Below are positions 2,217-15,743 of a stretch of DNA of 64,000 nt, one piece after another. The stretch lies in assembly GCA_963662405.2 (NCBI GenBank), contig CAXXKT010000001.1:2432001-2496000 (forward strand). The letters run 5' to 3'. Every line of letters starts with the position of its first letter. Within the stretch, counting starts at the first letter, position 1. The notes under the pieces are model-generated. The model did no database searches, had not been told where the DNA came from, and saw nothing but the letters and a program-made list of their open reading frames with translations. Position numbers and translations under genes: made by a program. Source of the DNA: Syntrophales bacterium (lineage in GTDB: Bacteria > Desulfobacterota > Syntrophia > Syntrophales > UBA2210).

Positions 2217-3092
2217 ATGTTTACAGGTGCAATAGTCGCGATTGTAACCCCATTTAAAGATGGGAAGGTGGACGAGGAGGCGCTCAGGGAACTGATCGAG
2301 TTCCAGATAGATTCTGGAACCGATGGCATCGTCCCCTGCGGGACGACGGGAGAAAGTGCAACCATGTCTCATGAAGAGCACGACCGGGTCGTCGAGATCA
2401 CCGTGGATGCCGTCAACAAGAGGGTGCCCGTCATCGCAGGGGCCGGCTCCAACAGCACCAAGGAGGCCATCCGGCTTACCGAACATGCCTACAAGGTGGG
2501 GGCGGACGGAACACTCTTGGTGACCCCGTACTACAACAAACCGACACAAGAGGGGCTGTATCAGCACTACAAGGCGGTGGCCGAGGCCGTACCGGTCCCG
2601 ATCGTTCCCTACAACGTACCGGGCCGGACGGGGGTGAATATCCTCCCGGAGACCGCCGCGCGCCTTTCACAAATCAGTAACATCGTTGCCATCAAGGAGG
2701 CGACGGGGGATCTGAAACAGGTCAGCAAGGTGGTGGAACTGTGCGGTGACGACCTGACCGTCCTGTCCGGTGATGACTTTACCGTTCTTCCCATCCTGGC
2801 GGTGGGGGGGAAGGGGGTTATCTCCGTCGTGTCCAATGTTGTCCCGGGGGATATGGCAGCCATGATCGATGCCTTCGAGGCGGGGGATCTGGAGAAGGCG
2901 CGCGCGCTTCATTACCGGATGAGCCCGATCATGTATGGGTGCTTTCTGGAGACCAATCCCATCCCGGTCAAGAAGGCCCTCGTGATGATGGGGAAGATCC
3001 AGGATGAGATCAGACTTCCCCTGTGTAATATGTCAGATGCGAACCATCAGAAATTACGTGAGATCATGATCGATTACGGTCTGATCAAATAA
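2217..3092 (+). CDS. dapA: 4-hydroxy-tetrahydrodipicolinate synthase
   Basis: GTTGES, PYYNKPTQEG, YNVPGRTG, IKEA and ETNPIPVK motifs. Confidence 0.97.
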   Translation: MFTGAIVAIVTPFKDGKVDEEALRELIEFQIDSGTDGIVPCGTTGESATMSHEEHDRVVEITVDAVNKRVPVIAGAGSNSTKEAIRLTEHAYKVGADGTLLVTPYYNKPTQEGLYQHYKAVAEAVPVPIVPYNVPGRTGVNILPETAARLSQISNIVAIKEATGDLKQVSKVVELCGDDLTVLSGDDFTVLPILAVGGKGVISVVSNVVPGDMAAMIDAFEAGDLEKARALHYRMSPIMYGCFLETNPIPVKKALVMMGKIQDEIRLPLCNMSDANHQKLREIMIDYGLIK

Positions 3093-3094
3093 GG

Positions 3095-3910
3095 GTGAAT
3101 AACGTGACAAAGGTAATCGTTACCGGAGCCGCCGGCAAGATGGGAGGGCGTATCATTGCCCTTATCCAGGGAGACGACCGGATGGAGCTTGTGGGGGCGT
3201 TGGAACAGAAGGGACATCCGCTCATCGGAAAAGATGTTGGCTCGTTTCTGGGGCTGGGAGTAACCGGTGTCGCTCTTGGAGATGATCTGGATGGTTGTAT
3301 CGACCAGGCCGATGTTGTTATTGATTTCACGAGTCATACTGCATCGCTGGATCACCTGCGAGTAGCGGCCGAGCACGGCACGGCGATCGTCATCGGTTCC
3401 ACGGGATTTACACCGGATGAGATGGAAAAGGTGGCTGATCTCTCTCGCGGGACACGGTGTGTCTTTGCTCCCAACATGAGCGTCGGTGTGAATGTCATGT
3501 TCAAGGTCCTCAAAGAGGTGGCCGGTATCCTGGGGGACGCGTATGACGTGGAGATCGTCGAGGCACACCACAACCAGAAAAAGGATGCCCCCAGCGGGAC
3601 GGCCGTGAAGATGGCCGAGGTCATAGCCGAGGCCCTCGGCAGGGATATGGGGGAGATCGGCGTATACGGTCGCAGGGGGATGATCGGGGCCCGTCCGCAG
3701 GCGGAAATAGCGGTTCACACCGTCAGGGCGGGAGATATCGTTGGTGAACACACAGTCCTCTTCGGCGGCATGGGTGAGCGGCTGGAGTTCACCCACCGCG
3801 CCCACAGTCGCGAGAATTTCGCCCGGGGAGCGATCCGGGCTGCGTTATGGATTGTCGATAGAGGAAAGGGCCTGTATGATATGCAGGATGTCTTGGGACT
3901 GAACGGCTGA
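3095..3910 (+). CDS. dapB: 4-hydroxy-tetrahydrodipicolinate reductase
   Basis: GAAGKMG Rossmann motif and EAHHNQKKDAPSGTA signature. Confidence 0.97.
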   Translation: MNNVTKVIVTGAAGKMGGRIIALIQGDDRMELVGALEQKGHPLIGKDVGSFLGLGVTGVALGDDLDGCIDQADVVIDFTSHTASLDHLRVAAEHGTAIVIGSTGFTPDEMEKVADLSRGTRCVFAPNMSVGVNVMFKVLKEVAGILGDAYDVEIVEAHHNQKKDAPSGTAVKMAEVIAEALGRDMGEIGVYGRRGMIGARPQAEIAVHTVRAGDIVGEHTVLFGGMGERLEFTHRAHSRENFARGAIRAALWIVDRGKGLYDMQDVLGLNG

Positions 3911-6120: not shown

Positions 6121-6196
6121 GGCGGCATAGCCAAGTGGCTAAGGCAGCGGTCTGCAAAACCGTTATTCACCGGTTCGAGTCCGGTTGCCGCCTCCA
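6121..6196 (+). tRNA. tRNA-Cys (GCA), integration target
   Basis: GGCGGCA acceptor stem, anticodon loop CTGCAAA, GGTTCGAGTCC T-arm, encoded CCA. Confidence 0.97.
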
Positions 6197-6202: not shown

Positions 6203-6238
6203 AACAAGGGGTTAGCCTACAACGGCTTGCCCCTTGTT
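6203..6238 (+). terminator. Hairpin directly downstream of tRNA-Cys
   Basis: AACAAGGGG-TTAGCC...GGCTTG-CCCCTTGTT inverted repeat followed by TGTTT; also lies at the 3' end of the convergent integrase. Confidence 0.6.
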
Positions 6239-7417
6239 TGTTTCAGGGTGCGTATAGGGTGCGTTTGGTTGCGTGTCCAGTTCGTCAATGTCCGATCTGC
6301 TTTCCTTTGGAAGCCATTTGTAATAAGTCCTATATGTGATTTCCGTTGTCGAATGACCCATTTCCTTGCTTACCTCTGCCAGGGAATCCCCTTTACTCAA
6401 TCGCAAGGTAGCATAGGTGTGCCTCATATCGTGCGGGGTCCGTCTTCTCAGTTTTGACTTATCCATGCCCCGGTTCCATACACGATGAATGAAGTTGCCA
6501 TAATTCAAGGGTGTACCGTCTTCATTGTTGAAAACCCATTCCGGCATAGACTTCCATCCCTGTTTAAGCGTTCTCTCTGCCATGTACTTTTTATGCTGTG
6601 TGAGAAGCTCTGCAAGTTGTGAGGTCATTCTTACGTGACGACGGCTTGACCGGCTCTTAGGGGTCGTTATTTTGCCCCGCGTGATGTTCCTTTGCACAAG
6701 TATCAACTTTTGATAGAAGTCAATATCCCCCCACTGTAGGCCGATAATTTCACCTATTCTGAGACCGGTTCTAAATCCACAAATGACAAGGGGATAATAT
6801 GTCGGATACTCTTTTAAGAATGTCTGTTCAAGTTTTGCGCGCTCTTTCCATGACAAAGGGTCCGGTTCTTTTACTTGCCGTTCATCTTCGGGTTTCGGTA
6901 TGGGAACCCCTCGCGCAGGGTTTGAAGAGATGAAACCATCAGGATTCACGGCATGCCTTAAAATTGCGCTCAGACAGTTTTTTATATTCCTTGCCGTGCT
7001 ACTCCTTAACCCTCCCTTGATCTTTTCGCTTATAAGGTCGCTGATCATTCGTGACGTGATTTCATCAAGGGGTTTCGATCCAAAAGCAGGTAAGAGGGTT
7101 TCATCAATTATGAGTCGATAGCTACGGTACGTAGAATGCTTCAGAGATAGGAGGGCAACTTTTTTATACCAACCGGTTTGAGATTTGCCTTCAGAGTCTT
7201 TCCAGCCGTCAACATATTCCTTGAGGGTAGGGGGCTTAGAGGATTTATCATCAATCCCCATTTCTCCCAGGGTCAATTTTGCTTCGATCTTCCTTGCGGC
7301 CTCCTGGGCAATACGCTTATCATGCCCCACCTTCTTTGATTTGCGTTTCCCGTTGTGATTGATAAACAACCACCATTCCCCGGACCCTTTGACCTTTTCT
7401 TTGACCTTGACTCCCAT
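6212..7417 (-). CDS. int: Tyrosine recombinase / phage integrase
   Basis: RTGLRIGE, PKS, HDMRHTYA, MGHS and TYRTYY catalytic motifs; adjacent to att. Confidence 0.96.
   Translation of the reverse strand: MGVKVKEKVKGSGEWWLFINHNGKRKSKKVGHDKRIAQEAARKIEAKLTLGEMGIDDKSSKPPTLKEYVDGWKDSEGKSQTGWYKKVALLSLKHSTYRSYRLIIDETLLPAFGSKPLDEITSRMISDLISEKIKGGLRSSTARNIKNCLSAILRHAVNPDGFISSNPARGVPIPKPEDERQVKEPDPLSWKERAKLEQTFLKEYPTYYPLVICGFRTGLRIGEIIGLQWGDIDFYQKLILVQRNITRGKITTPKSRSSRRHVRMTSQLAELLTQHKKYMAERTLKQGWKSMPEWVFNNEDGTPLNYGNFIHRVWNRGMDKSKLRRRTPHDMRHTYATLRLSKGDSLAEVSKEMGHSTTEITYRTYYKWLPKESRSDIDELDTQPNAPYTHPETNKGQAVVG
6245..6263. repeat. Probable integrase arm-type binding sites (left)
   Basis: AGGGTGCGTATAGGGTGCG (two AGGGTGCG units) recurs exactly at 15604-15622 near the other att core. 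Confidence 0.75.
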
Positions 7418-7480: not shown

Positions 7481-7873
7481 TTATCCCGCCCCATATAGTC
7501 CGCCCCGAATTAACGTTAAGTGAGGGGCAGAGGTTTTTACCTTTTCAACTACAGGTTTTTGATCTTCTTGCCATTTCTTATACACATCTTGCCATTCTGC
7601 AAGTCGTTGCTTGCCTACTTTAACATTTTCCTTATGCCGGACTAGCCATTTCCTGCTAAACCTCAAACCCATTTCCAGAAAGGCTTTATCCATACCGCTC
7701 TGATTTGGATGTGTTTTCTTTCGCTCAAGCCACTCCTTTATTTCTTGCCGACAATCCCTTACCCCTTTTTGATGTAGGGCAATCCTGTTTTTTTCAATAG
7801 CGATAAAGTCTTTAAGGTATTTTTCACGACCCTCTTCAAACTGCTTCCATTCTTCCGATACATAAAACCGCAT
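7481..7873 (-). CDS. Hypothetical basic, helical protein upstream of int
   Basis: ATG at 7873 with strong RBS GAAAGGAGAGGAG; no family recognised. Confidence 0.7.
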   Translation of the reverse strand: MRFYVSEEWKQFEEGREKYLKDFIAIEKNRIALHQKGVRDCRQEIKEWLERKKTHPNQSGMDKAFLEMGLRFSRKWLVRHKENVKVGKQRLAEWQDVYKKWQEDQKPVVEKVKTSAPHLTLIRGGLYGAG

Positions 7874-8022
7874 TGCTCCTCTCCTTTCAAAATAGAAAAC
7901 CCCCCGAAGACTTCTCAAGGCCATAGGGGACCGCCCCCCACGTTACCGGGGAGGGAATCTTCAGGGGGTTTTGGGTGGTCTGTAGCTTTTTCATGGCCCT
8001 ATGGTTTGAGATTGAATGTAAT

Positions 8023-8708: not shown

Positions 8709-9062
8709 TCATGTCTTAAGGATTAAATTTGTCTCTAAGACGCGCCTTCTTAGCCTCCCCTCTAAAAGTCGATTCTGGGCGGCTTTTCTAATGTCAAAAC
8801 CGCCATTCTGTCGGATTTGTTGCAGTCGTTTTACAAATCGGCAATTTTCGCCGTTTTCAAAGAACAAAATGGGAGGGGAGGGGTGTTTCCACCCCTCCCC
8901 CTGAAACAGCGAGCAGGGGGAGCGGCCTTGCCCGCTGTTTTTGTGTGCCGATTCACGTTCGGAGGTACGCAATCGGCCGCGAGTTTTGCTGAAACCAGGT
9001 AACTCGAAACCTGGTCGCCGCCTGCGGGATAGCCCGCCCCCGGCGCAGGGTAGTCAATACGC

Positions 9063-9422
9063 TTATTCAATCCGCCCCTGTGCGAAGATGCACAGGGCAG
9101 TATTGCTTGACGAATCGACTGTAAGAGAAGTTGCTGCCGTCAACACCATCCCGCCGTTTCGAAAATCCCATTGCAGTGAGGTATTCGCGGCCATTGCAAC
9201 AGGACCTAGCAAAGCCGTTGTGACTGCTGCGCCTGTCTTCCCTTCGCCGATGGTGATACTCTGAGCACCGGCCCCGTTGTTAATGGTGAGATGGTCAACA
9301 ATGATCGACGTTCCCGCCGCCGGAGCCGCTTTTAATACTTCACACCCGGACGCATCGGCGCTCGTGGCGTTCAAAATCCACCCGAATTTTCCGGGAGCTG
9401 GATTCGTTACAGTAATAGCCAT
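9063..9422 (-). CDS. Putative virion structural / capsid accessory protein
   Basis: Ala/Thr/Gly-rich beta-type sequence, last gene of the capsid operon; positional inference. Confidence 0.55.
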   Translation of the reverse strand: MAITVTNPAPGKFGWILNATSADASGCEVLKAAPAAGTSIIVDHLTINNGAGAQSITIGEGKTGAAVTTALLGPVAMAANTSLQWDFRNGGMVLTAATSLTVDSSSNTALCIFAQGRIE

Positions 9423-9435
9423 AATTCACCCCTTC

Positions 9436-9942
9436 CTATGCCAGGCACGTAGGCATCCTGTTCGCGGGATATCGCGGTTCCAAGATTGCGAATACAATCG
9501 CCTGTCCGGTCGCTCCACCGGGATCGGTGAAGTCAAGCGTCAACCACTCTTCACCATTCGCAACATCCATCTCAGAGGCCATGATATCGACAACCAGCAT
9601 GTAGTTGTCATAGGTGCCGTGAGTGAGCGTGAGTGCCGCGCTCGTACTCCAGGCAGTGAGAACGTCACAGGAAGCAGTACTTCCCGCAACCGCCGTTCCC
9701 TGTGCCGCACCGCCAAAGGCGTAACGGAAGGTCAAGGCCGAAGTGCAAGCCGCATCACTCGCGCCTGAATACAGATACAACACCGGGCTTGCCGTCCCGA
9801 TATCGTAAAGCTGAATCAGGTAGGTGCACCGATGAAAATTCTTCATACAAATACTGTCCGAAAGGTTGGAAGCTGCATTATCGAAGTCGATATCAACACC
9901 AACCGGGACGGGTTTAAAATTTTCGATGAAAATCATGTTCAT
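9436..9942 (-). CDS. Putative head decoration protein
   Basis: Directly follows the major capsid gene; Ala/Thr/Asp-rich with C-terminal LEPRY; positional inference. Confidence 0.55.
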   Translation of the reverse strand: MNMIFIENFKPVPVGVDIDFDNAASNLSDSICMKNFHRCTYLIQLYDIGTASPVLYLYSGASDAACTSALTFRYAFGGAAQGTAVAGSTASCDVLTAWSTSAALTLTHGTYDNYMLVVDIMASEMDVANGEEWLTLDFTDPGGATGQAIVFAILEPRYPANRMPTCLA

Positions 9943-9992: not shown

Positions 9993-11297
9993 TTATCGAG
10001 CACCAAGAACCACGAAGGGGCTTACCGTCGTGCTTCCGTCTTCAAGGGTCAGAGCCTCATCCCAGAGGGGCTGGCCGTCGTGCCGTTCTATGATTCTTGA
10101 CAACAACTCATCCGTGGTAAAGTGAACATGGATTGACGTGTCAAACCTCATGCCCTCCCGGAGTCCCACAACGTACTGTGAGAAGTCACAGAGCATGATA
10201 TCGCCCTTATTCCCAAGAACTTCCGTCTTTTCCGTGAACAAAACCGGCCTCGTGAGGATCTTGAATTGACCGTTACTTTCAGTCATAACGGGTATTCTGT
10301 CGCCTCCGGTGCCAACGGCAATGCTTAAGGTCAATAGTTGCGGTATCGTGGATTGGTGACACACCCATACAGAGTTTTGGAAGCTCCCCGCGAACATCCT
10401 CGCCATCATGTTTGTCAAATTTTCGTACACGATGGTATCAGCCGCCTGGCCGTTTTCAGGGTCAACCTCTATGGTGCAACCAGCATTCAGGATACCCAAC
10501 GGTCCACCTGCCGCGCCGATCCCTTTCAAAAAGGCTTTATCCCGGTACCAGGCAAGGCCTTTTCCACACAGGGTTTCAATCTGTGACATCCCGCCGGGAG
10601 TATCCGCATTCAGCTCAGAGCTGAACCGAATCAAACCCGTCAATTTTTTCGCGTTCAGGGTCATGCTGCGAGCTTTCGGGGAGTTTTCGCTTATCGTGCC
10701 AAGCTCTGCTGTATAGGACGCGGTAAACCCGCCGAAAAGAGCTGTTGAATGATCCCCAATTGACATAGCTGGAATCTTGATTTCATTGCCCTTCATAGGC
10801 TGAACGAAACATCTCGGCATTACCAATTCATTTTCCAGTGATACCGCGTGAATCCTAGCGGCCTGCTCGGAGGGTACCAGAAAGCCCCCATCACTCGGAA
10901 CCGTTTCACTCATGGAATTGAGTAGAAGGCCCGGATGGTGACGGCCGGAAAGCGCCGCTGCGAAGAAGTTCGTTGTCTCATCTTCCCACTTGTACCCGCC
11001 GCTTCCAAACAGGCTTTTATAATCTTTTGCCCCGTTCGGGGGTATCAGAGTGCGGGCACCGTCAAGCCGGTATTCGCTGCCATTGCCTCTATCGGTAAAA
11101 TTCATGTTCTGAGGAAGGCTAAGCGGCTTTTCGGGAAGATATTTCCGCTCGTCTTCAATAGCGGATTCCATTTCGCCTATAAGTGAAATTTCCTGAGCAT
11201 TCAAAGCCCGCCCTTCTTTAACCGCCTTTACCTGAATATGTCCGATTTTCTCAGACAGTTTTTTTATATTTTCCCGTGTCTCTTCTTCGATATGCAT
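9993..11297 (-). CDS. HK97-family major capsid protein
   Basis: N-terminal coiled-coil (delta-domain-like), SDGGFLVP, LNAKKL, GDIMLCDFSQY and RHDGQP...SPFVVLGAR; ATG at 11297 after RBS AAAGGTGA. Confidence 0.9.
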   Translation of the reverse strand: MHIEEETRENIKKLSEKIGHIQVKAVKEGRALNAQEISLIGEMESAIEDERKYLPEKPLSLPQNMNFTDRGNGSEYRLDGARTLIPPNGAKDYKSLFGSGGYKWEDETTNFFAAALSGRHHPGLLLNSMSETVPSDGGFLVPSEQAARIHAVSLENELVMPRCFVQPMKGNEIKIPAMSIGDHSTALFGGFTASYTAELGTISENSPKARSMTLNAKKLTGLIRFSSELNADTPGGMSQIETLCGKGLAWYRDKAFLKGIGAAGGPLGILNAGCTIEVDPENGQAADTIVYENLTNMMARMFAGSFQNSVWVCHQSTIPQLLTLSIAVGTGGDRIPVMTESNGQFKILTRPVLFTEKTEVLGNKGDIMLCDFSQYVVGLREGMRFDTSIHVHFTTDELLSRIIERHDGQPLWDEALTLEDGSTTVSPFVVLGAR

Positions 11298-11339
11298 ATT
11301 ATTCACCTTTCAATTTTGTTTTATTTTTATGTATATAAA

Positions 11340-11517: not shown

Positions 11518-11868
11518 TTAGACAATTCTTTCATAACCGCCGCCGCTGATTCGCAGTTGCAGGTTCGTCTGAAGATTTAAAAGCTTCCATATTTTCAAAA
11601 ATTCCCCCGTTGCCTGTCGCTGCGTATTGAGTAACGGGTGTTGCCGGGCTATCTTTGACCGCTCTGACTTTTTGCTTAATCCCTCTTCCCGGATAATTCG
11701 CCCGCACTCATCCGCCTGGTCCATCGCTTCAAGACCCCGAAGGAATAGCGCAATTTGACCCGGAGCACGGACGGACCGGCCCACATAAAAACTGAATAAT
11801 TCCTTTGCCTTTTCGCTTAAATGTTCCGGTGGTTCCGGCCATTTATGTTCATTTTCTGAGCTTGTCAT
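11518..11868 (-). CDS. terS: Phage terminase small subunit, P27-like
   Basis: PEPPEHLSEKAK...IREEG...QHPLL...WKLLNL pattern. Confidence 0.8.
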   Translation of the reverse strand: MTSSENEHKWPEPPEHLSEKAKELFSFYVGRSVRAPGQIALFLRGLEAMDQADECGRIIREEGLSKKSERSKIARQHPLLNTQRQATGEFLKIWKLLNLQTNLQLRISGGGYERIV

Positions 11869-12007: not shown

Positions 12008-12811
12008 TCATTTATCCCACCACTTGCCCTTTTCATCTTCCGGCCTGTCTGTTACTTCCCGGAGATACCGGCCCACCTTTTCAAGCTTGACTACCTTTTC
12101 CAGGCAACCCGTTCTCCGGTGAAACTCTACCCGGACCTTTGCCCGGTTCTCTCCATCCTTCGGGGTCCGCTGTATCATCAAAACGCTGTCGCTTTCCTGA
12201 GAGACAAACGAGCTATCCCGGATTGATTCATAAGACAGGTTGCCCTCTGATTTGCCCTTCACGGTATGGCACAAGAGAAAGATAATCAGGCCATTATCCA
12301 CCGCCAGGCTCTTCAGTCGTCTAATGACCGCGCCGATATCAAGGCTTGGGTTCCGGCTCCTGGCAATGTCAAACAAGTAATGAAGGTGATCGATGAAGAC
12401 CACGCGGGTATGGTACTTGATAAACGATTCAAGGATTCTGTCTTCTAACCACTTCATGTCGTGTGCTTTTAGTTTTGACGGCATATAGACAAACGGGACT
12501 TTCTGAAACTGTGACAGGAATTGACGCGCCGGGACTTCATAGGAAAACCACAGCGGGAAGATTTGCTGTTTTATCATTTCCACCGTGAAGCTCTGACAAA
12601 GGAGCGTCTTTCCCCCTTTGGTGTAACCTGATACCGCGTACACCTCCCCGGCCTGAAAACCCTCAATGTAGCGGTCAAGGGTAGGGATACCGCTCTTGAC
12701 GGTAACCACCGGCTCCGCCGTGCTCTCCAAGGCAAGGGAAAGCTCCGGCGCACTTATGACCCGATCCTCACCTTGATAGTTTTTTAAGCTCTCTTGCCGT
12801 TTCGCGGTCAT
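12008..12811 (-). CDS. DnaB-like (RecA-fold) helicase domain protein
   Basis: SGIPTLD, Walker A GYTKGGKT, FSYE, Walker B VVFIDHLH, IRDSSFVSQESD. Confidence 0.85.
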   Translation of the reverse strand: MTAKRQESLKNYQGEDRVISAPELSLALESTAEPVVTVKSGIPTLDRYIEGFQAGEVYAVSGYTKGGKTLLCQSFTVEMIKQQIFPLWFSYEVPARQFLSQFQKVPFVYMPSKLKAHDMKWLEDRILESFIKYHTRVVFIDHLHYLFDIARSRNPSLDIGAVIRRLKSLAVDNGLIIFLLCHTVKGKSEGNLSYESIRDSSFVSQESDSVLMIQRTPKDGENRAKVRVEFHRRTGCLEKVVKLEKVGRYLREVTDRPEDEKGKWWDK

Positions 12812-13118
12812 TCAAGATTTCCTTTCTCAATGTTTCAATCGTGTTCATGTCCTCTGCTATCAGGCCCCGGATTAACTCTTGCATGTCCGGCTCTGCGCCC
12901 TCCGCCAGGGCAACCTCAATGCCTATTAGTTCCGTCAAGACCTGCATGTGCTCCCGGCTTTCCCGTTCATATTCCCGGTAAAGTTCCCCCACGTAATCAC
13001 TCTTAGGGATGTTTCCTTCCCGCTCCTGTCTCTCTTTCTCCGCAACCTCCGCCCGTTCTTTCTCTGACAGGAAAGGGGCAACTTCCTTGAATGCCTCTTG
13101 ACGGTTATTCCCAACCAT
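12768..13118 (-). CDS. Hypothetical acidic coiled-coil protein in the replication operon
   Basis: Overlaps both neighbours on the same strand; no family recognised. Confidence 0.6.
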   Translation of the reverse strand: MVGNNRQEAFKEVAPFLSEKERAEVAEKERQEREGNIPKSDYVGELYREYERESREHMQVLTELIGIEVALAEGAEPDMQELIRGLIAEDMNTIETLRKEILNDRETARELKKLSR

Positions 13119-13752
13119 CAGCGGCCCCCTTCGGTTCGTCTATTTCGTCTTCCCACCGGCCTTGATTCAACCAGGTGGAAGCGTGGGGGATATACTTCTT
13201 GTCCTGCCATTGCTCAGAGTGTTTATGCAGTTCAAGGATTGAGAGAAGTTCATCAAGGGGGGGAAGGTCCCCGTTTCTTTTCTTCCAGGCCTTCCATGCT
13301 GCATCTTTTCCCACCTTCCGAGGATACGCTTGCCAGAAGGTGAGGAAATTTGACGTATATATATTTTCTTTCTTTACATTCTTGTATGTTGCCACTTGTT
13401 TGTCGTTTTGCGTGTCGTTTTCGTTTTCTTCGTTCTGGTAAGTGTTCCAATTCACTATGGTAATTATCGAAAATTTGTTTGTCGTTTTGCGTGTCACATT
13501 TCCGGCCTTTTCCAGAAATTCAAGGATAGTGCGGATTTCCCGGATTGTAAGGCCCGTTTCCTCGGAAGCTACCCGTAACCCAAAGATGAATTGTCCCGGC
13601 ATCAGGTGCACAACCTGCAACCCCACAATCGCGTCGTATTCCTTGTGGGATGCTTTCATCAGGCAGTAGGTCCAGAAAGCCCATAGCTTGTGATTCCTAA
13701 CCCAACCGGCATCAAGGGACCTGCGCCACAATTTGACATAGCCTTGATTCAT
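13105..13752 (-). CDS. Phage-type replication initiator
   Basis: GYVKLWRR N-terminus, IITIVNWNTYQ, C-terminal FWQAYPRKVGK...HASTWLNQGRWEDE. Confidence 0.85.
   Translation of the reverse strand: MNQGYVKLWRRSLDAGWVRNHKLWAFWTYCLMKASHKEYDAIVGLQVVHLMPGQFIFGLRVASEETGLTIREIRTILEFLEKAGNVTRKTTNKFSIITIVNWNTYQNEENENDTQNDKQVATYKNVKKENIYTSNFLTFWQAYPRKVGKDAAWKAWKKRNGDLPPLDELLSILELHKHSEQWQDKKYIPHASTWLNQGRWEDEIDEPKGAADGWE
13396..13495. repeat. Iteron-like 21-bp direct repeat inside the initiator gene (candidate origin)
   Basis: TTGTTTGTCGTTTTGCGTGTC at 13396-13416 and 13475-13495, next to an AT-rich tract. Confidence 0.65.
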
Positions 13753-13955
13753 TTTCCGGCTCCTAGCTGGTATGCGTGCGGATCGTCGAACCTTGTATTG
13801 AAGAGGACTGTTAACTCTTCCTCAGTCGTCTTAACCCGTCCCTTATCATTTGCCAGTTCCGCGATTAACAGAAACATGTTCGCGCCCAGGGGGTTTTGGT
13901 GATATAGGCGGTCGTACCGTTTCTTGAATTTCCTATTAGGTTTGAAAGTTATCAC
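13749..13955 (-). CDS. Small hypothetical protein
   Basis: 68 aa, start/stop overlap with both neighbours. Confidence 0.65.
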   Translation of the reverse strand: MITFKPNRKFKKRYDRLYHQNPLGANMFLLIAELANDKGRVKTTEEELTVLFNTRFDDPHAYQLGAGK

Positions 13956-14170
13956 TGCAAGTCCCTCAATGTTTCATTGACAATACTATCCACTTGGTCA
14001 TCTTCCACGGCGAACGATTCAAGGTAGGCATCAATCCAATCGTACTTAATCAAGATTGTGCCGCTCGGTATGCGGGAATGCCTCAACCCATCCTTTAGCC
14101 AATCCCGCATGGTTCTTTCGCTTATTCCGGCGTATTGTGCAGCGAGTTTTATTTTTGCCCAACCATTCAT
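13952..14170 (-). CDS. Excisionase-like HTH protein
   Basis: AAQYAGISERTMRDWLKDGL...IDAYLE MerR-like HTH. Confidence 0.85.
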   Translation of the reverse strand: MNGWAKIKLAAQYAGISERTMRDWLKDGLRHSRIPSGTILIKYDWIDAYLESFAVEDDQVDSIVNETLRDLQ

Positions 14171-14188
14171 GATTTGCCCCGTATTACC

Positions 14189-14392
14189 CTAACCCCGAAA
14201 AACCTCACTCGGATTTACATCAAGGTAGCTTGCAACTTTCTTTTCGATGTCAGGTGTTCCGATCCCATACTTGATAAGTGTAGATATCCGGCTTTCAGGA
14301 ATATCTGTTTCAAAAGCGAGCTGCCTTTGGGATATTTGCTTTTTGAAGAGCAGCATTTTCAAGGTTTCGTTTGGCCTGTATCTCGTACCCAT
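14189..14392 (-). CDS. XRE/Cro-family HTH regulator
   Basis: ISQRQLAFETDIPESRISTLIK...VASYLDVNPSEVF; RBS AGGAGG. Confidence 0.88.
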   Translation of the reverse strand: MGTRYRPNETLKMLLFKKQISQRQLAFETDIPESRISTLIKYGIGTPDIEKKVASYLDVNPSEVFRG

Positions 14393-14477
14393 GAGTAACC
14401 TCCTGAAAAAGTATTTCTTAAAAATGGAAGCAAAATTTTTTTGCCTTTCTACTAAGGGTAAAAATGTAACAGGATTT

Positions 14478-14709
14478 TCATAGTTTTTTCTTTATTCGCG
14501 CCACCACATTTCTAACATTAACCTCAGTCAAATCAAGCATTTGGGCTATTGCGCGATATGTTTTACCAGCAACCAAAAGTGTAACAATCTGCTGTTCCCT
14601 TGGTGTTAATTGTATGCGCCGTTTGGGTGATGGAAACTTGCCGTGACGTGGAACACCGATAGTTATTTCTCTTTGCGGTGTTTCCTGCTTTTTTGTTCAA
14701 GGCTTTCAT
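14478..14709 (-). pseudogene. LuxR/sigma-region-4-type HTH module D (frameshift in an A6 run; possibly an assembly error)
   Basis: ...GKFPSPKRRIQLTPREQQIVTLLVAGKTYRAIAQMLDLTEVNVRNVVARIKKKL*; ATG at 14709 is one base out of frame. Confidence 0.75.
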
Positions 14710-14770
14710 AAGCTCACTTCGGTAATCCTTGCCTTTCTACTAATAGTAAAAAAGGGGGTCAAAAACGTAA

Positions 14771-14908
14771 CTATTTGAGGTATTTTACCTTCATGCGCTT
14801 GAGATGATTTCTGAGATTTGCCCTAGTAATATTCAGTAGTTCTGCAATTTCGACCCTCGAAAAACCTTTTTCTGAAAGCGTAGCAATTTTCATCTCCATT
14901 TCAGTCAA
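14771..14908 (-). CDS. LuxR/sigma-region-4-type HTH module C (45 codons; expression uncertain)
   Basis: LTEMEMKIATLSEKGFSRVEIAELLNITRANLRNHLKRMKVKYLK*. Confidence 0.7.
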   Translation of the reverse strand: MTEMEMKIATLSEKGFSRVEIAELLNITRANLRNHLKRMKVKYLK

Positions 14909-14953
14909 ATGAACCTTGCCTTTCTACTAATAGTAAAAAAGGGGCTAAAACCG

Positions 14954-15094
14954 TCAAGATTTTAGGTATTTTTTCTTTGCATTTGCGTAGTGAACACCAA
15001 GGGTGTGCCTTGTTATTCTTAGCATTTTGCACACCTCGCCCCTCGACAGACCCCTTTCTAAAAGCGTCAAGATTTTCATCTCCATTTCCGTTAA
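14954..15094 (-). CDS. LuxR/sigma-region-4-type HTH module B (46 codons; first ATG at 15085; expression uncertain)
   Basis: LTEMEMKILTLLERGLSRGEVCKMLRITRHTLGVHYANAKKKYLKS*. Confidence 0.7.
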   Translation of the reverse strand, partial: LTEMEMKILTLLERGLSRGEVCKMLRITRHTLGVHYANAKKKYLKS

Positions 15095-15142
15095 ATGAAC
15101 CTCGCCTTTCTACTAATAGTAAAAAAGGGGCTAAAAGCGTCG

Positions 15143-15342
15143 CTATTTAAGGTGTTTTTTCTTCATCCTGTGCAAATGGTCACGCAAACTTTTTTTTGAA
15201 ATATCCAATAGTTCTGCAATTTCAGCCCTTGAAAAACCTTTTTCTGAAAGCGTCGCTATTTTCATCTCCATTTCAGTCAAATGAACCCCGCCAGGAACAC
15301 TCGGCCTCTTGCCAAAAACTCCTTGACAGTCTCAAATTCCAT
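15143..15342 (-). CDS. LuxR/sigma-region-4-type HTH module A (one extra base in the run at 15314-15318 would join it to the ATG at 15342)
   Basis: GKRPSVPGGVHLTEMEMKIATLSEKGFSRAEIAELLDISKKSLRDHLHRMKKKHLK*; upstream ATG has RBS AGGAGGGA. Confidence 0.75.
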
Positions 15343-15349
15343 TGATTCC

Positions 15350-15534
15350 CTCCTACTTATAGGAAAAAATTGTAAAATCTTGCGTTTTGCTGAACGAATC
15401 TGATAGCTTACCTGCTCGCTCGATAATTTAAGATAAACCCCGTATTGGTTGGCTGAAGATAATCTTGATGCAATCTGCTTGTAGGTAAGACCCTCGAAGT
15501 AGAAAAGGTGGAGACACTTGTTTTGAAGGGGAGT
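15350..15534 (-). pseudogene. Sigma70 region-4-like HTH module E, no in-frame start
   Basis: TPLQNKCLHLFYFEGLTYKQIASRLS...LSSEQVSYQIRSAKRKI, preceded by an in-frame TGA. Confidence 0.65.
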
Positions 15535-15603
15535 TCACTTAGAAATTGACTCTTATCGACTTATAGACTATGTTTTTCACAGCACCATGCAAGGTGCGGC
15601 AGT

Positions 15604-15622
15604 AGGGTGCGTATAGGGTGCG
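15604..15622. repeat. Probable integrase arm-type binding sites (right)
   Basis: Same 19-mer as 6245-6263; extra AAGGTGCG at 15591. Confidence 0.75.
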
Positions 15623-15697
15623 GATTACGGCAAAATATACGCAATTTGTGATAGCCAAGGGCTAGTAATATCGGTAACTTAGGGTGGCTCCTGTGTC

Positions 15698-15743
15698 CTG
15701 CAAAACCGTTATTCACCGGTTCGAGTCCGGTTGCCGCCTCCAA
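15698..15743 (+). repeat. att core, right copy
   Basis: 46-bp exact copy of 6152-6197. Confidence 0.95.

Follow-up and report, generated by a model that had tools for sequence, protein, structure and literature searches.

Stacked fragments of a phage regulator gene, with paired predicted operators, at the control end of a satellite-like element of a Syntrophales bacterium

Analysis of a 64,000-nucleotide stretch of a Syntrophales bacterium genome (contig CAXXKT010000001.1; the window) revealed five stacked minus-strand units (0, A, B, C, and D), each of which is a 3′ fragment of a phage regulator gene. Sequence comparisons indicate that genes of the parent phage family contain a predicted operator of their own in the codons of the helix-turn-helix (HTH) domain and that the motif changes with the recognition helix. 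We see about an even chance that the units were captured from phages as late-control modules, act in cis, and would allow regulators from several helper phages to switch on the satellite that carries them. The features of the array are as follows.

14444..14455, minus strand, 3′ core of unit D, TTAGTAGAAAGG
14461..14473, minus strand, downstream site of unit D
14481..14693, minus strand, HTH frame of unit D, which retains more of the phage gene and lacks an in-frame start ahead of the HTH, the closest ATG (14709) being in another frame
14576..14588, minus strand, coding site of unit D
14732..14743, minus strand, 3′ core of unit C
14762..14774, minus strand, downstream site of unit C
14771..14908, minus strand, mini-HTH open reading frame (ORF) of unit C, TTG start, 45 aa
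14875..14887, minus strand, coding site of unit C
14919..14930, minus strand, 3′ core of unit B
14948..14960, minus strand, downstream site of unit B, including TTGACG with TACTAT 16 nt after
14954..15094, minus strand, mini-HTH frame of unit B, TTA at the position of the TTG of A and C; earliest ATG at 15085
15061..15073, minus strand, coding site of unit B
15105..15116, minus strand, 3′ core of unit A
15134..15146, minus strand, downstream site of unit A, overlapping the stop codon
15143..15280, minus strand, mini-HTH ORF of unit A, TTG start, 45 aa
15247..15259, minus strand, coding site of unit A
15277..15342, minus strand, leader ORF of 21 codons with a strong ribosome-binding site; its stop overlaps the TTG of unit A
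15348..15359, minus strand, 3′ core of unit 0, TAAGTAGGAGGG
15349..15534, minus strand, unit 0, a broken sigma70-region-4-like HTH remnant without a start codon (PF04545, 4.3e-5)

Units A to C recur with a period of 186 nt on the minus strand and carry 45- to 46-residue HTH frames of the GerE/Sigma70_r4_2 type, all three HTH helices being present in these three open frames. The core TWAGTAGRARGG terminates all five units, and five of its six copies in the 3.8-Mb assembly belong to the array, the sixth being unrelated. The four-cysteine domain of the parent family is missing from every unit, and two of them (D and unit 0) lack a usable start. Unit D retains the linker motif of the family. Unit 0 has about 11 additional residues in the HTH turn, and a search for a paired site in this unit found none. 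The ribosome-binding sites of the TTG-started units A and C are of moderate strength, as computed with an assumed anti-Shine-Dalgarno sequence. Short-read contigs from the same probable source sample, and hence not independent support, are identical to the window over positions 13396-14756 and 15107-15727; since they agree without difference, assembly error is ruled out as the cause of the breaks in D and unit 0. Production of a polyprotein by stop codon read-through was ruled out, as four stops, with TAG and TGA mixed, lie between units. An inverted repeat at 14415-14443, between the unit D core and the ribosome-binding site of the adjacent xre gene, is a candidate XRE operator.

The preliminary description had reported that units A to D each carry a DNA motif twice; it had overlooked the broken unit 0 and the lack of a start codon in the HTH frame of D. 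The positions given (A, 15247 and 15134; B, 15058 and 14945; C, cores at 14879 and 14766; D, 14580 and 14465), the spacings (113, 113, 113, and 115 bp), and the identity of the two B copies at 18 of 19 positions were all correct. The copies of a unit are closer to each other than to those of other units in A and B, as had been proposed, whereas the pairs of C and D are not unit specific. Over 17 nt, own-unit matches amount to 15 in A and 16 in B, versus 12-13 between units; they amount to 12 in C and 9 in D (12/18 for D at an offset of 115), and the coding site of C matches that of A at 15/17 positions. The self-match of A and B (17/18) was equalled in 0/400 shuffles at any offset, and those of C and D in 359/400 and 233/400, respectively. 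With the offset fixed at 113-115, the self-matches of C and D were equalled in 87/2000 and 111/2000 shuffles. The repeat pairs are real: those of A and B are strong, and those of C and D are each weak alone and borderline. At other sites within the satellite, 11/13 matches occur at roughly chance frequency.

A −35/−10-like geometry had also been proposed, and TACTAT does lie 16, 16, and 17 nt past the motif hexamer in A, B, and C, respectively; it is missing from D, and a sigma70-type −10 at 16-18 nt is found in 0/11 direct-orientation loci of the external phages described below. A sigma70 promoter scan returned 4 sites versus 3.6 expected, with unit B alone passing among the units, and the distance between core and site is about 11 nt longer in A to C than in D and most phages. 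A transcriptional relay had also been suggested as a possibility. In such a scheme, every mini-HTH would turn on the promoter that follows it and hence the next cassette, in the order 0, A, B, C, D, and xre, as a timer or an AND gate. The unit order, the TACTAT placement, and weak stems over the ribosome-binding site of the next unit (z of −1.6 to −2.6) speak for such a relay. The chain is nevertheless broken at D and unit 0, the activating domain is likely missing, and a search for terminator-like sites between units on the minus strand found none. We regard the relay as very improbable.

The parent family consists of proteins of ~96 aa (95-120 residues) combining a four-cysteine N terminus with a LuxR-type HTH. 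Searching 1.84 billion representatives with a profile recovered it among many ordinary LuxR proteins, and another such search yielded 44. The four N-terminal cysteines are present in 34 of 43 aligned members and may bind zinc. In the predicted structure, a three-helix HTH is modeled with pLDDT >90 over residues 51-90 and the N terminus is poorly defined. The modeled HTH is closest to that of NarL/GerE, on which it can be superposed at ~1 Å over 42-46 residues (E of 0.009 or weaker). Unlike NarL/GerE, the model ends with the recognition helix and the dimerizing fourth helix is missing. No specific NCBIfam model, including any for RinA, ArpU, DUF1492, or LtrC, was found among the 25 families listed for the 43 members, and three members had no PHROG match at 1e-8. 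Pfam searches with two members showed no homology to RinA, ArpU, DUF1492, or LtrC and returned generic Sigma70_r4/GerE matches, which are common to LtrA, and no Ogr/Delta match was obtained up to an E of 1 for P0155 and P0023. The family falls in an unnamed viral Atlas cluster, which may be its own.

DNA loci of the family were collected with peptide-based patterns in IMG/VR and from one genome. Portal, terminase, or head genes lie directly downstream of the family gene in 14 of 20 loci, the other 6 having no match at 1e-8 among the proteins compared (54 of the listed ORFs). A full-length family gene was sought in the host assembly, and none was found. An element, GGCCGC-N-GCGGGG(A), is conserved 60-90 nt behind the regulator gene and ahead of portal or terminase genes in six phage loci (L054:4321, L045:4324, L061:3358, L064:3720, L069:3718, and L070:3721) and is missing from the window; it is possibly a packaging site or an RNA element.

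Pairing of sites was then compared in 22 non-redundant external loci, drawn from 30 rows after near-duplicates and the four window units were left out; none had been found via the repeat. The word compared was the 15-mer centered on the helix 1 Thr codon. The coding motif matched its own downstream site at 10.36/15 positions and those of other loci at 8.64/15, a difference reached in 0/20000 permutations (p<5e-5); with the direct orientation only, the values were 8.86 and 7.70. Among shifted control words, 8/9 were not significant and one gave a p of 0.015. A match of ≥11/15 was reached by 10/22 family loci versus 0/26 ordinary LuxR genes that share the peptide, an imperfect control as their hosts are mostly GC-richer. 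The other 12 external loci score below 11/15, and the two own sites of L010 disagree at the variable bases. Among the Thr-Leu rows, 11/12 read ACGCTTTT, five being near-duplicates. Within-cassette pairing in homologues, the check that the preliminary description had named, was therefore found in external family genes. We conclude from these comparisons that self-pairing is ancestral: it was inherited from full-length phage genes and not invented by the cassettes.

The downstream copy lies 103-104 or 113-115 bp away when direct and ~99-103 bp away when inverted, and site orientation changes once on the family tree. The occurrence of direct and inverted forms, with spacings one helical turn apart, would fit a protein-bound and possibly looped pair rather than duplication or RNA pairing. 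Simple duplication or a by-product of gene conversion was rejected because inverted pairs and the tracking of the helix by the site, reported below, do not fit. An RTAG core lies 13-14 nt from the site in 4/11 direct-orientation external loci only.

The second check, covariation between motif and recognition helix, was carried out on the 18/27 rows with ≥9/13 matches; nine rows were dropped, three registers and one tie were set by hand, and one row (L089) had been recovered through its repeat. Rows with more similar helices have more similar sites (Mantel r 0.46; partial r 0.43), the rest of the HTH not being significant, so that the motif tracks the recognition helix in homologues. Of 108 position pairs, the strongest association is between residue 3 of the helix and the base preceding ACG (family-wise p 0.026), a pair that had been spotted by eye before the scan. 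In 14 external loci, Lys goes with G (4/4), His with G (1), Glu with C (2/2), Gly with A (3/3), and Asn with A (2/2), Asp being split (p 5e-5); addition of three borderline rows weakens the association to a p of 0.001. Unit A, with Lys and G, and unit B, with His and G, obey this pattern. Units C and D combine Ala and Val, respectively, with T, outside the combinations covered by the external loci. The helix and site of unit B resemble those of L054 and of the distant, inverted L052. The base before ACG changes at least seven times on the tree; the tree-based test of the code comprises 2 independent pairs only, both concordant, and is underpowered (p 0.5). The proposal that each cassette is a protein plus a cognate site varying with the helix is thus upheld for pairing and covariation in homologues; the arrangement was inherited from phage genes, however, and the cassettes lack the cysteine domain and, in D and unit 0, a start.

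A 9.5-kb element extending from a tRNA-Cys gene to a 45-nt att repeat has the array at its right end and the following other features.

6121..6196, plus strand, tRNA-Cys, the final 45 nt of which (6152-6196) are the att core
6212..7417, minus strand, tyrosine integrase (Pfam PF00589, 3.8e-20)
9993..11306, minus strand, HK97-type major capsid protein (PF05065, 6e-32; phrog_10, 1.5e-36)
11518..11868, minus strand, probable small terminase (PF05119, 7e-4, below cut-off)
12008..12811, minus strand, DnaB-like helicase (Pfam/PHROG)
13105..13752, minus strand, replication initiator or DnaD-like protein (phrog_2514, phrog_270)
13952..14170, minus strand, excisionase-like HTH_17 protein (PF12728, 2.5e-4, below cut-off)
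14189..14392, minus strand, Cro/XRE-type HTH gene with a strong ribosome-binding site (PF13443, 1.2e-4), the first intact gene past the array
15698..15742, plus strand, second copy of the att core (45-nt exact repeat), right end of the satellite

Behind the array, the genes follow on one strand in the order xre-xis-rep-helicase-terS-capsid-int, as a single operon headed by the array. Pfam and PHROG searches detected no portal, large terminase, tail, or holin genes, and five satellite ORFs remain without annotation. Size, integration at a tRNA gene, integrase, att sites, small regulators, replication module, capsid gene, and the weak TerS match, together with the missing portal and tail genes, recall the phage-inducible chromosomal islands (PICIs) as portrayed in the passages cited (PMC10085698, PMC6092414). 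In contrast to PICIs, there is no AlpA or Stl match, the HTH_17/MerR and Cro/XRE matches being below or near cut-off; an initiator and a DnaB-like helicase replace Pri-Rep; and the integrase comes last in a co-oriented operon whose regulatory end is the array. Judged against the five PICI components given in PMC10085698, the element is probably a PICI-like satellite, with regulator and replicase matching loosely. Three ORFs behind the capsid gene (168, 119, and 147 aa; 9063-9942 and 7481-7924) have no Pfam or PHROG match and are possible head decoration or helper-interference genes. An Rfam scan found nothing in the array and, outside it, only tRNAs and two sub-threshold matches (E of 0.004 and 0.02) at 8833-8959, minus strand, which mark the intergenic region behind the capsid module as structured.

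Late transcriptional regulators of the Ltr superfamily (RinA, ArpU, and LtrA/B/C) bind cognate repeats at the end of their gene. They resemble the parent family in being small basic proteins encoded just upstream of packaging genes, with a C-terminal domain that sets specificity, according to the cited part of PMC3753634. Ltr proteins differ in that, in the text cited, they measure ~130 aa, come from phages of Gram-positive bacteria, and have short repeats directly beyond the gene, although these could also reach into coding DNA; the parent family is shorter, has the cysteine N terminus, and places one predicted site within the HTH codons, 103-115 bp upstream, in direct or inverted form. Satellite P4 is trans-activated by Ogr of phage P2 (cited section of PMC7552001), providing a likeness at the level of the satellite, which is switched on by the late activator of its helper, a cysteine-rich protein, and itself carries a homologue (excerpts of PMC7552001, PMC8628076, and PMC8096241). 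Delta of P4 works as an activator and has a single specificity; the array consists of truncated tandem units with at least four different helices, and its family has no Ogr/Delta match. The array would work like Ltr/Ogr control and P4 trans-activation, its family belonging by profile to neither group of proteins. We adopted the late-control reading because the position of the parent gene matches that of Ltr activators and because P4 answers the late activator of its helper.

In the reading that we favor, a full-length helper regulator would bind both copies of the motif, looping being consistent with spacings of ~103 and ~113 bp, one helical turn apart, and the bound regulator would activate late transcription from the 3′ core. 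As one site sits within the HTH codons, capture of a helper late switch would drag HTH-coding DNA along, which would explain the mini-ORFs. One 186-bp unit would have been multiplied and its helix-plus-site segment then replaced from different donors, so that a helper regulator matching any unit could drive the operon from xre to int. Retention in cis is visible in the 3′ core kept by every unit despite the missing cysteine domain and the absent starts of unit 0 and D, and the satellite capsid shares its PHROG type with the capsid of direct-orientation phage L054. The promoter role of the core is deduced from its position because the −10 is missing in all 11 direct-orientation external loci.

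That missing −10 would also suit a family with another DNA-binding late function, as a Q-like antiterminator, a repressor, or a packaging-site factor, whose sites the satellite took for that purpose. The Q protein of phage lambda, which contains a zinc finger, binds DNA at the end of the gene encoding it, and pac sites can occur inside terS genes. Hairpins follow or include the 3′ core in several phage loci, and the regulator gene lies between terL upstream and portal downstream in five. The hairpin was not sequence specific in a chimera test (p 0.085), the fold is of the LuxR/NarL type, the gene position is that of Ltr late activators (passages cited from PMC3753634), and several phages carry their own terS-like gene downstream (e.g., L059). 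We consider such a function quite unlikely.

The history of the units was approached by comparing A, B, and C, which have common flanks but mosaic interiors. Identity between A and C is 95% in helix 1 and 90% in helix 2 but falls to 52% in the recognition helix, where multi-base synonymous changes are found and the codons of the unchanged Leu and Arg differ at two bases. Unit B is closer to phage L054 (69.8% over 129 nt) than to A or C. These comparisons suggest that helix-plus-site segments were imported. Separate donors are not proven, since an AU test did not reject a single clade for A to C (p 0.32). Units A and C differ in helices 1 and 2 by 5 synonymous to 1 non-synonymous change (p 0.002; 0.03 excluding site codons), a ratio that, together with the TTG starts, points to selection on the peptides or on their donors as proteins. 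Relative to A, the coding site of C has two synonymous changes, one of them toward its own downstream site.

Translation of A to C as HTH-only decoys, which would occupy late-control sites of differing specificity in helpers and damp their head genes, possibly alongside a role in cis, is unlikely in our estimation. The synonymous bias and the TTG starts of A and C, which point to protein function and by which decoys may coexist with the cis role, argue for it, as do the three open frames with a complete three-helix HTH and the leader ORF coupled to A; satellites that repress or compete for helper late genes provide a precedent (PtiA, CapR, and P4 Delta in the cited part of PMC8096241). However, B has no TTG, a start is missing from D and unit 0, both the dimerization helix and the cysteine domain are missing, and A and C have Ser where 43/43 family proteins have Leu, Ile, or Phe. 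Decoys would also leave unexplained why every unit retains the 3′ core. A broader proposal makes the satellite an updatable library of helper-recognition modules, with segments swapped from phages, each sensing one helper and making an HTH-only competitor, and with a parent family that writes its operator into HTH codons by a near one-residue-one-base code (Lys/His-G, Glu-C, Gly/Asn-A, and Ala/Val-T); taken as a whole, it appears rather doubtful.

Parallel remnants were found outside the array. Phage variant L011 has lost its ATG and has a 130-bp deletion ending 25 nt ahead of the coding site, and genome G366 has, beside a tRNA-Arg gene and near a contig end, an HTH-only remnant with both sites kept and no start ahead of helix 1. 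In L075 (19255-19461) and in the window (15277-15342), an unrelated upstream ORF stops at the same junction, within the codons for His/Tyr-Leu-Thr in the HTH remnant, which may point to a favored place of joining.

Searches for another array in 60 relatives and in 300 order, 338 class, and 400 phylum genomes, with 7-20 candidates scored per genome, returned none; the phylum-level search gave one single remnant and nine ordinary response regulators. A metagenome pattern search returned 2 chance matches only and no array, the viral core and tandem patterns gave 0 and 2 (unrelated) matches, and collections of phages and plasmids gave 2 weak matches and none. In one further search, 44/46 matches were already-known loci or non-family sequences, L089 being the sole new member, and a genome-contig scan found ordinary LuxR genes only, which were reused as controls. 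Among the matches listed, which were to contigs only, none showed a recombination joint between the 113-bp repeats of the array. Viral contig L127 contains, at 2800-3250, dispersed short repeats and palindromes unrelated to the family.

Occurrence in one genome, the two broken units among five, and the demonstration by L011 that a simple deletion suffices for such truncation are what would be expected of a neutral relic of repeated recombination with helper phages and tandem duplication, devoid of present function. We hold this improbable, as spacing and cores are kept throughout the units, one synonymous change in the coding site of C goes toward its downstream site, and the array occupies exactly the place where the control region of the operon must be.

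A site within the HTH codons of a regulator and a five-unit satellite array of multiple specificities were not found described in full-text searches of open-licence papers. Ordinary LuxR genes differ from the parent family in that the self-paired motif was not seen (0/26). For Escherichia coli PICIs, helper-dependent expression of alpA was reported and the inducer left unidentified in the portion cited of PMC6092414. As to how satellites of Gram-negative phages sense helpers, the array, a possible route to helper promiscuity, offers a concrete, testable answer for one element. The parent family provides ~18 natural helix-site pairs readable directly from genes, by which HTH specificity can be tested, and could yield a set of orthogonal regulator-site pairs.

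The host genome contains two more PICI-like elements, both with AlpA-like genes (G000:C2:23400-28400, L005; and G000:C1:323300-327800, L006), in which a search for an array-type unit found none. The first of them has in common with the array satellite a 68-aa ORF (70%) and, for Rep, the N-terminal half (88%).
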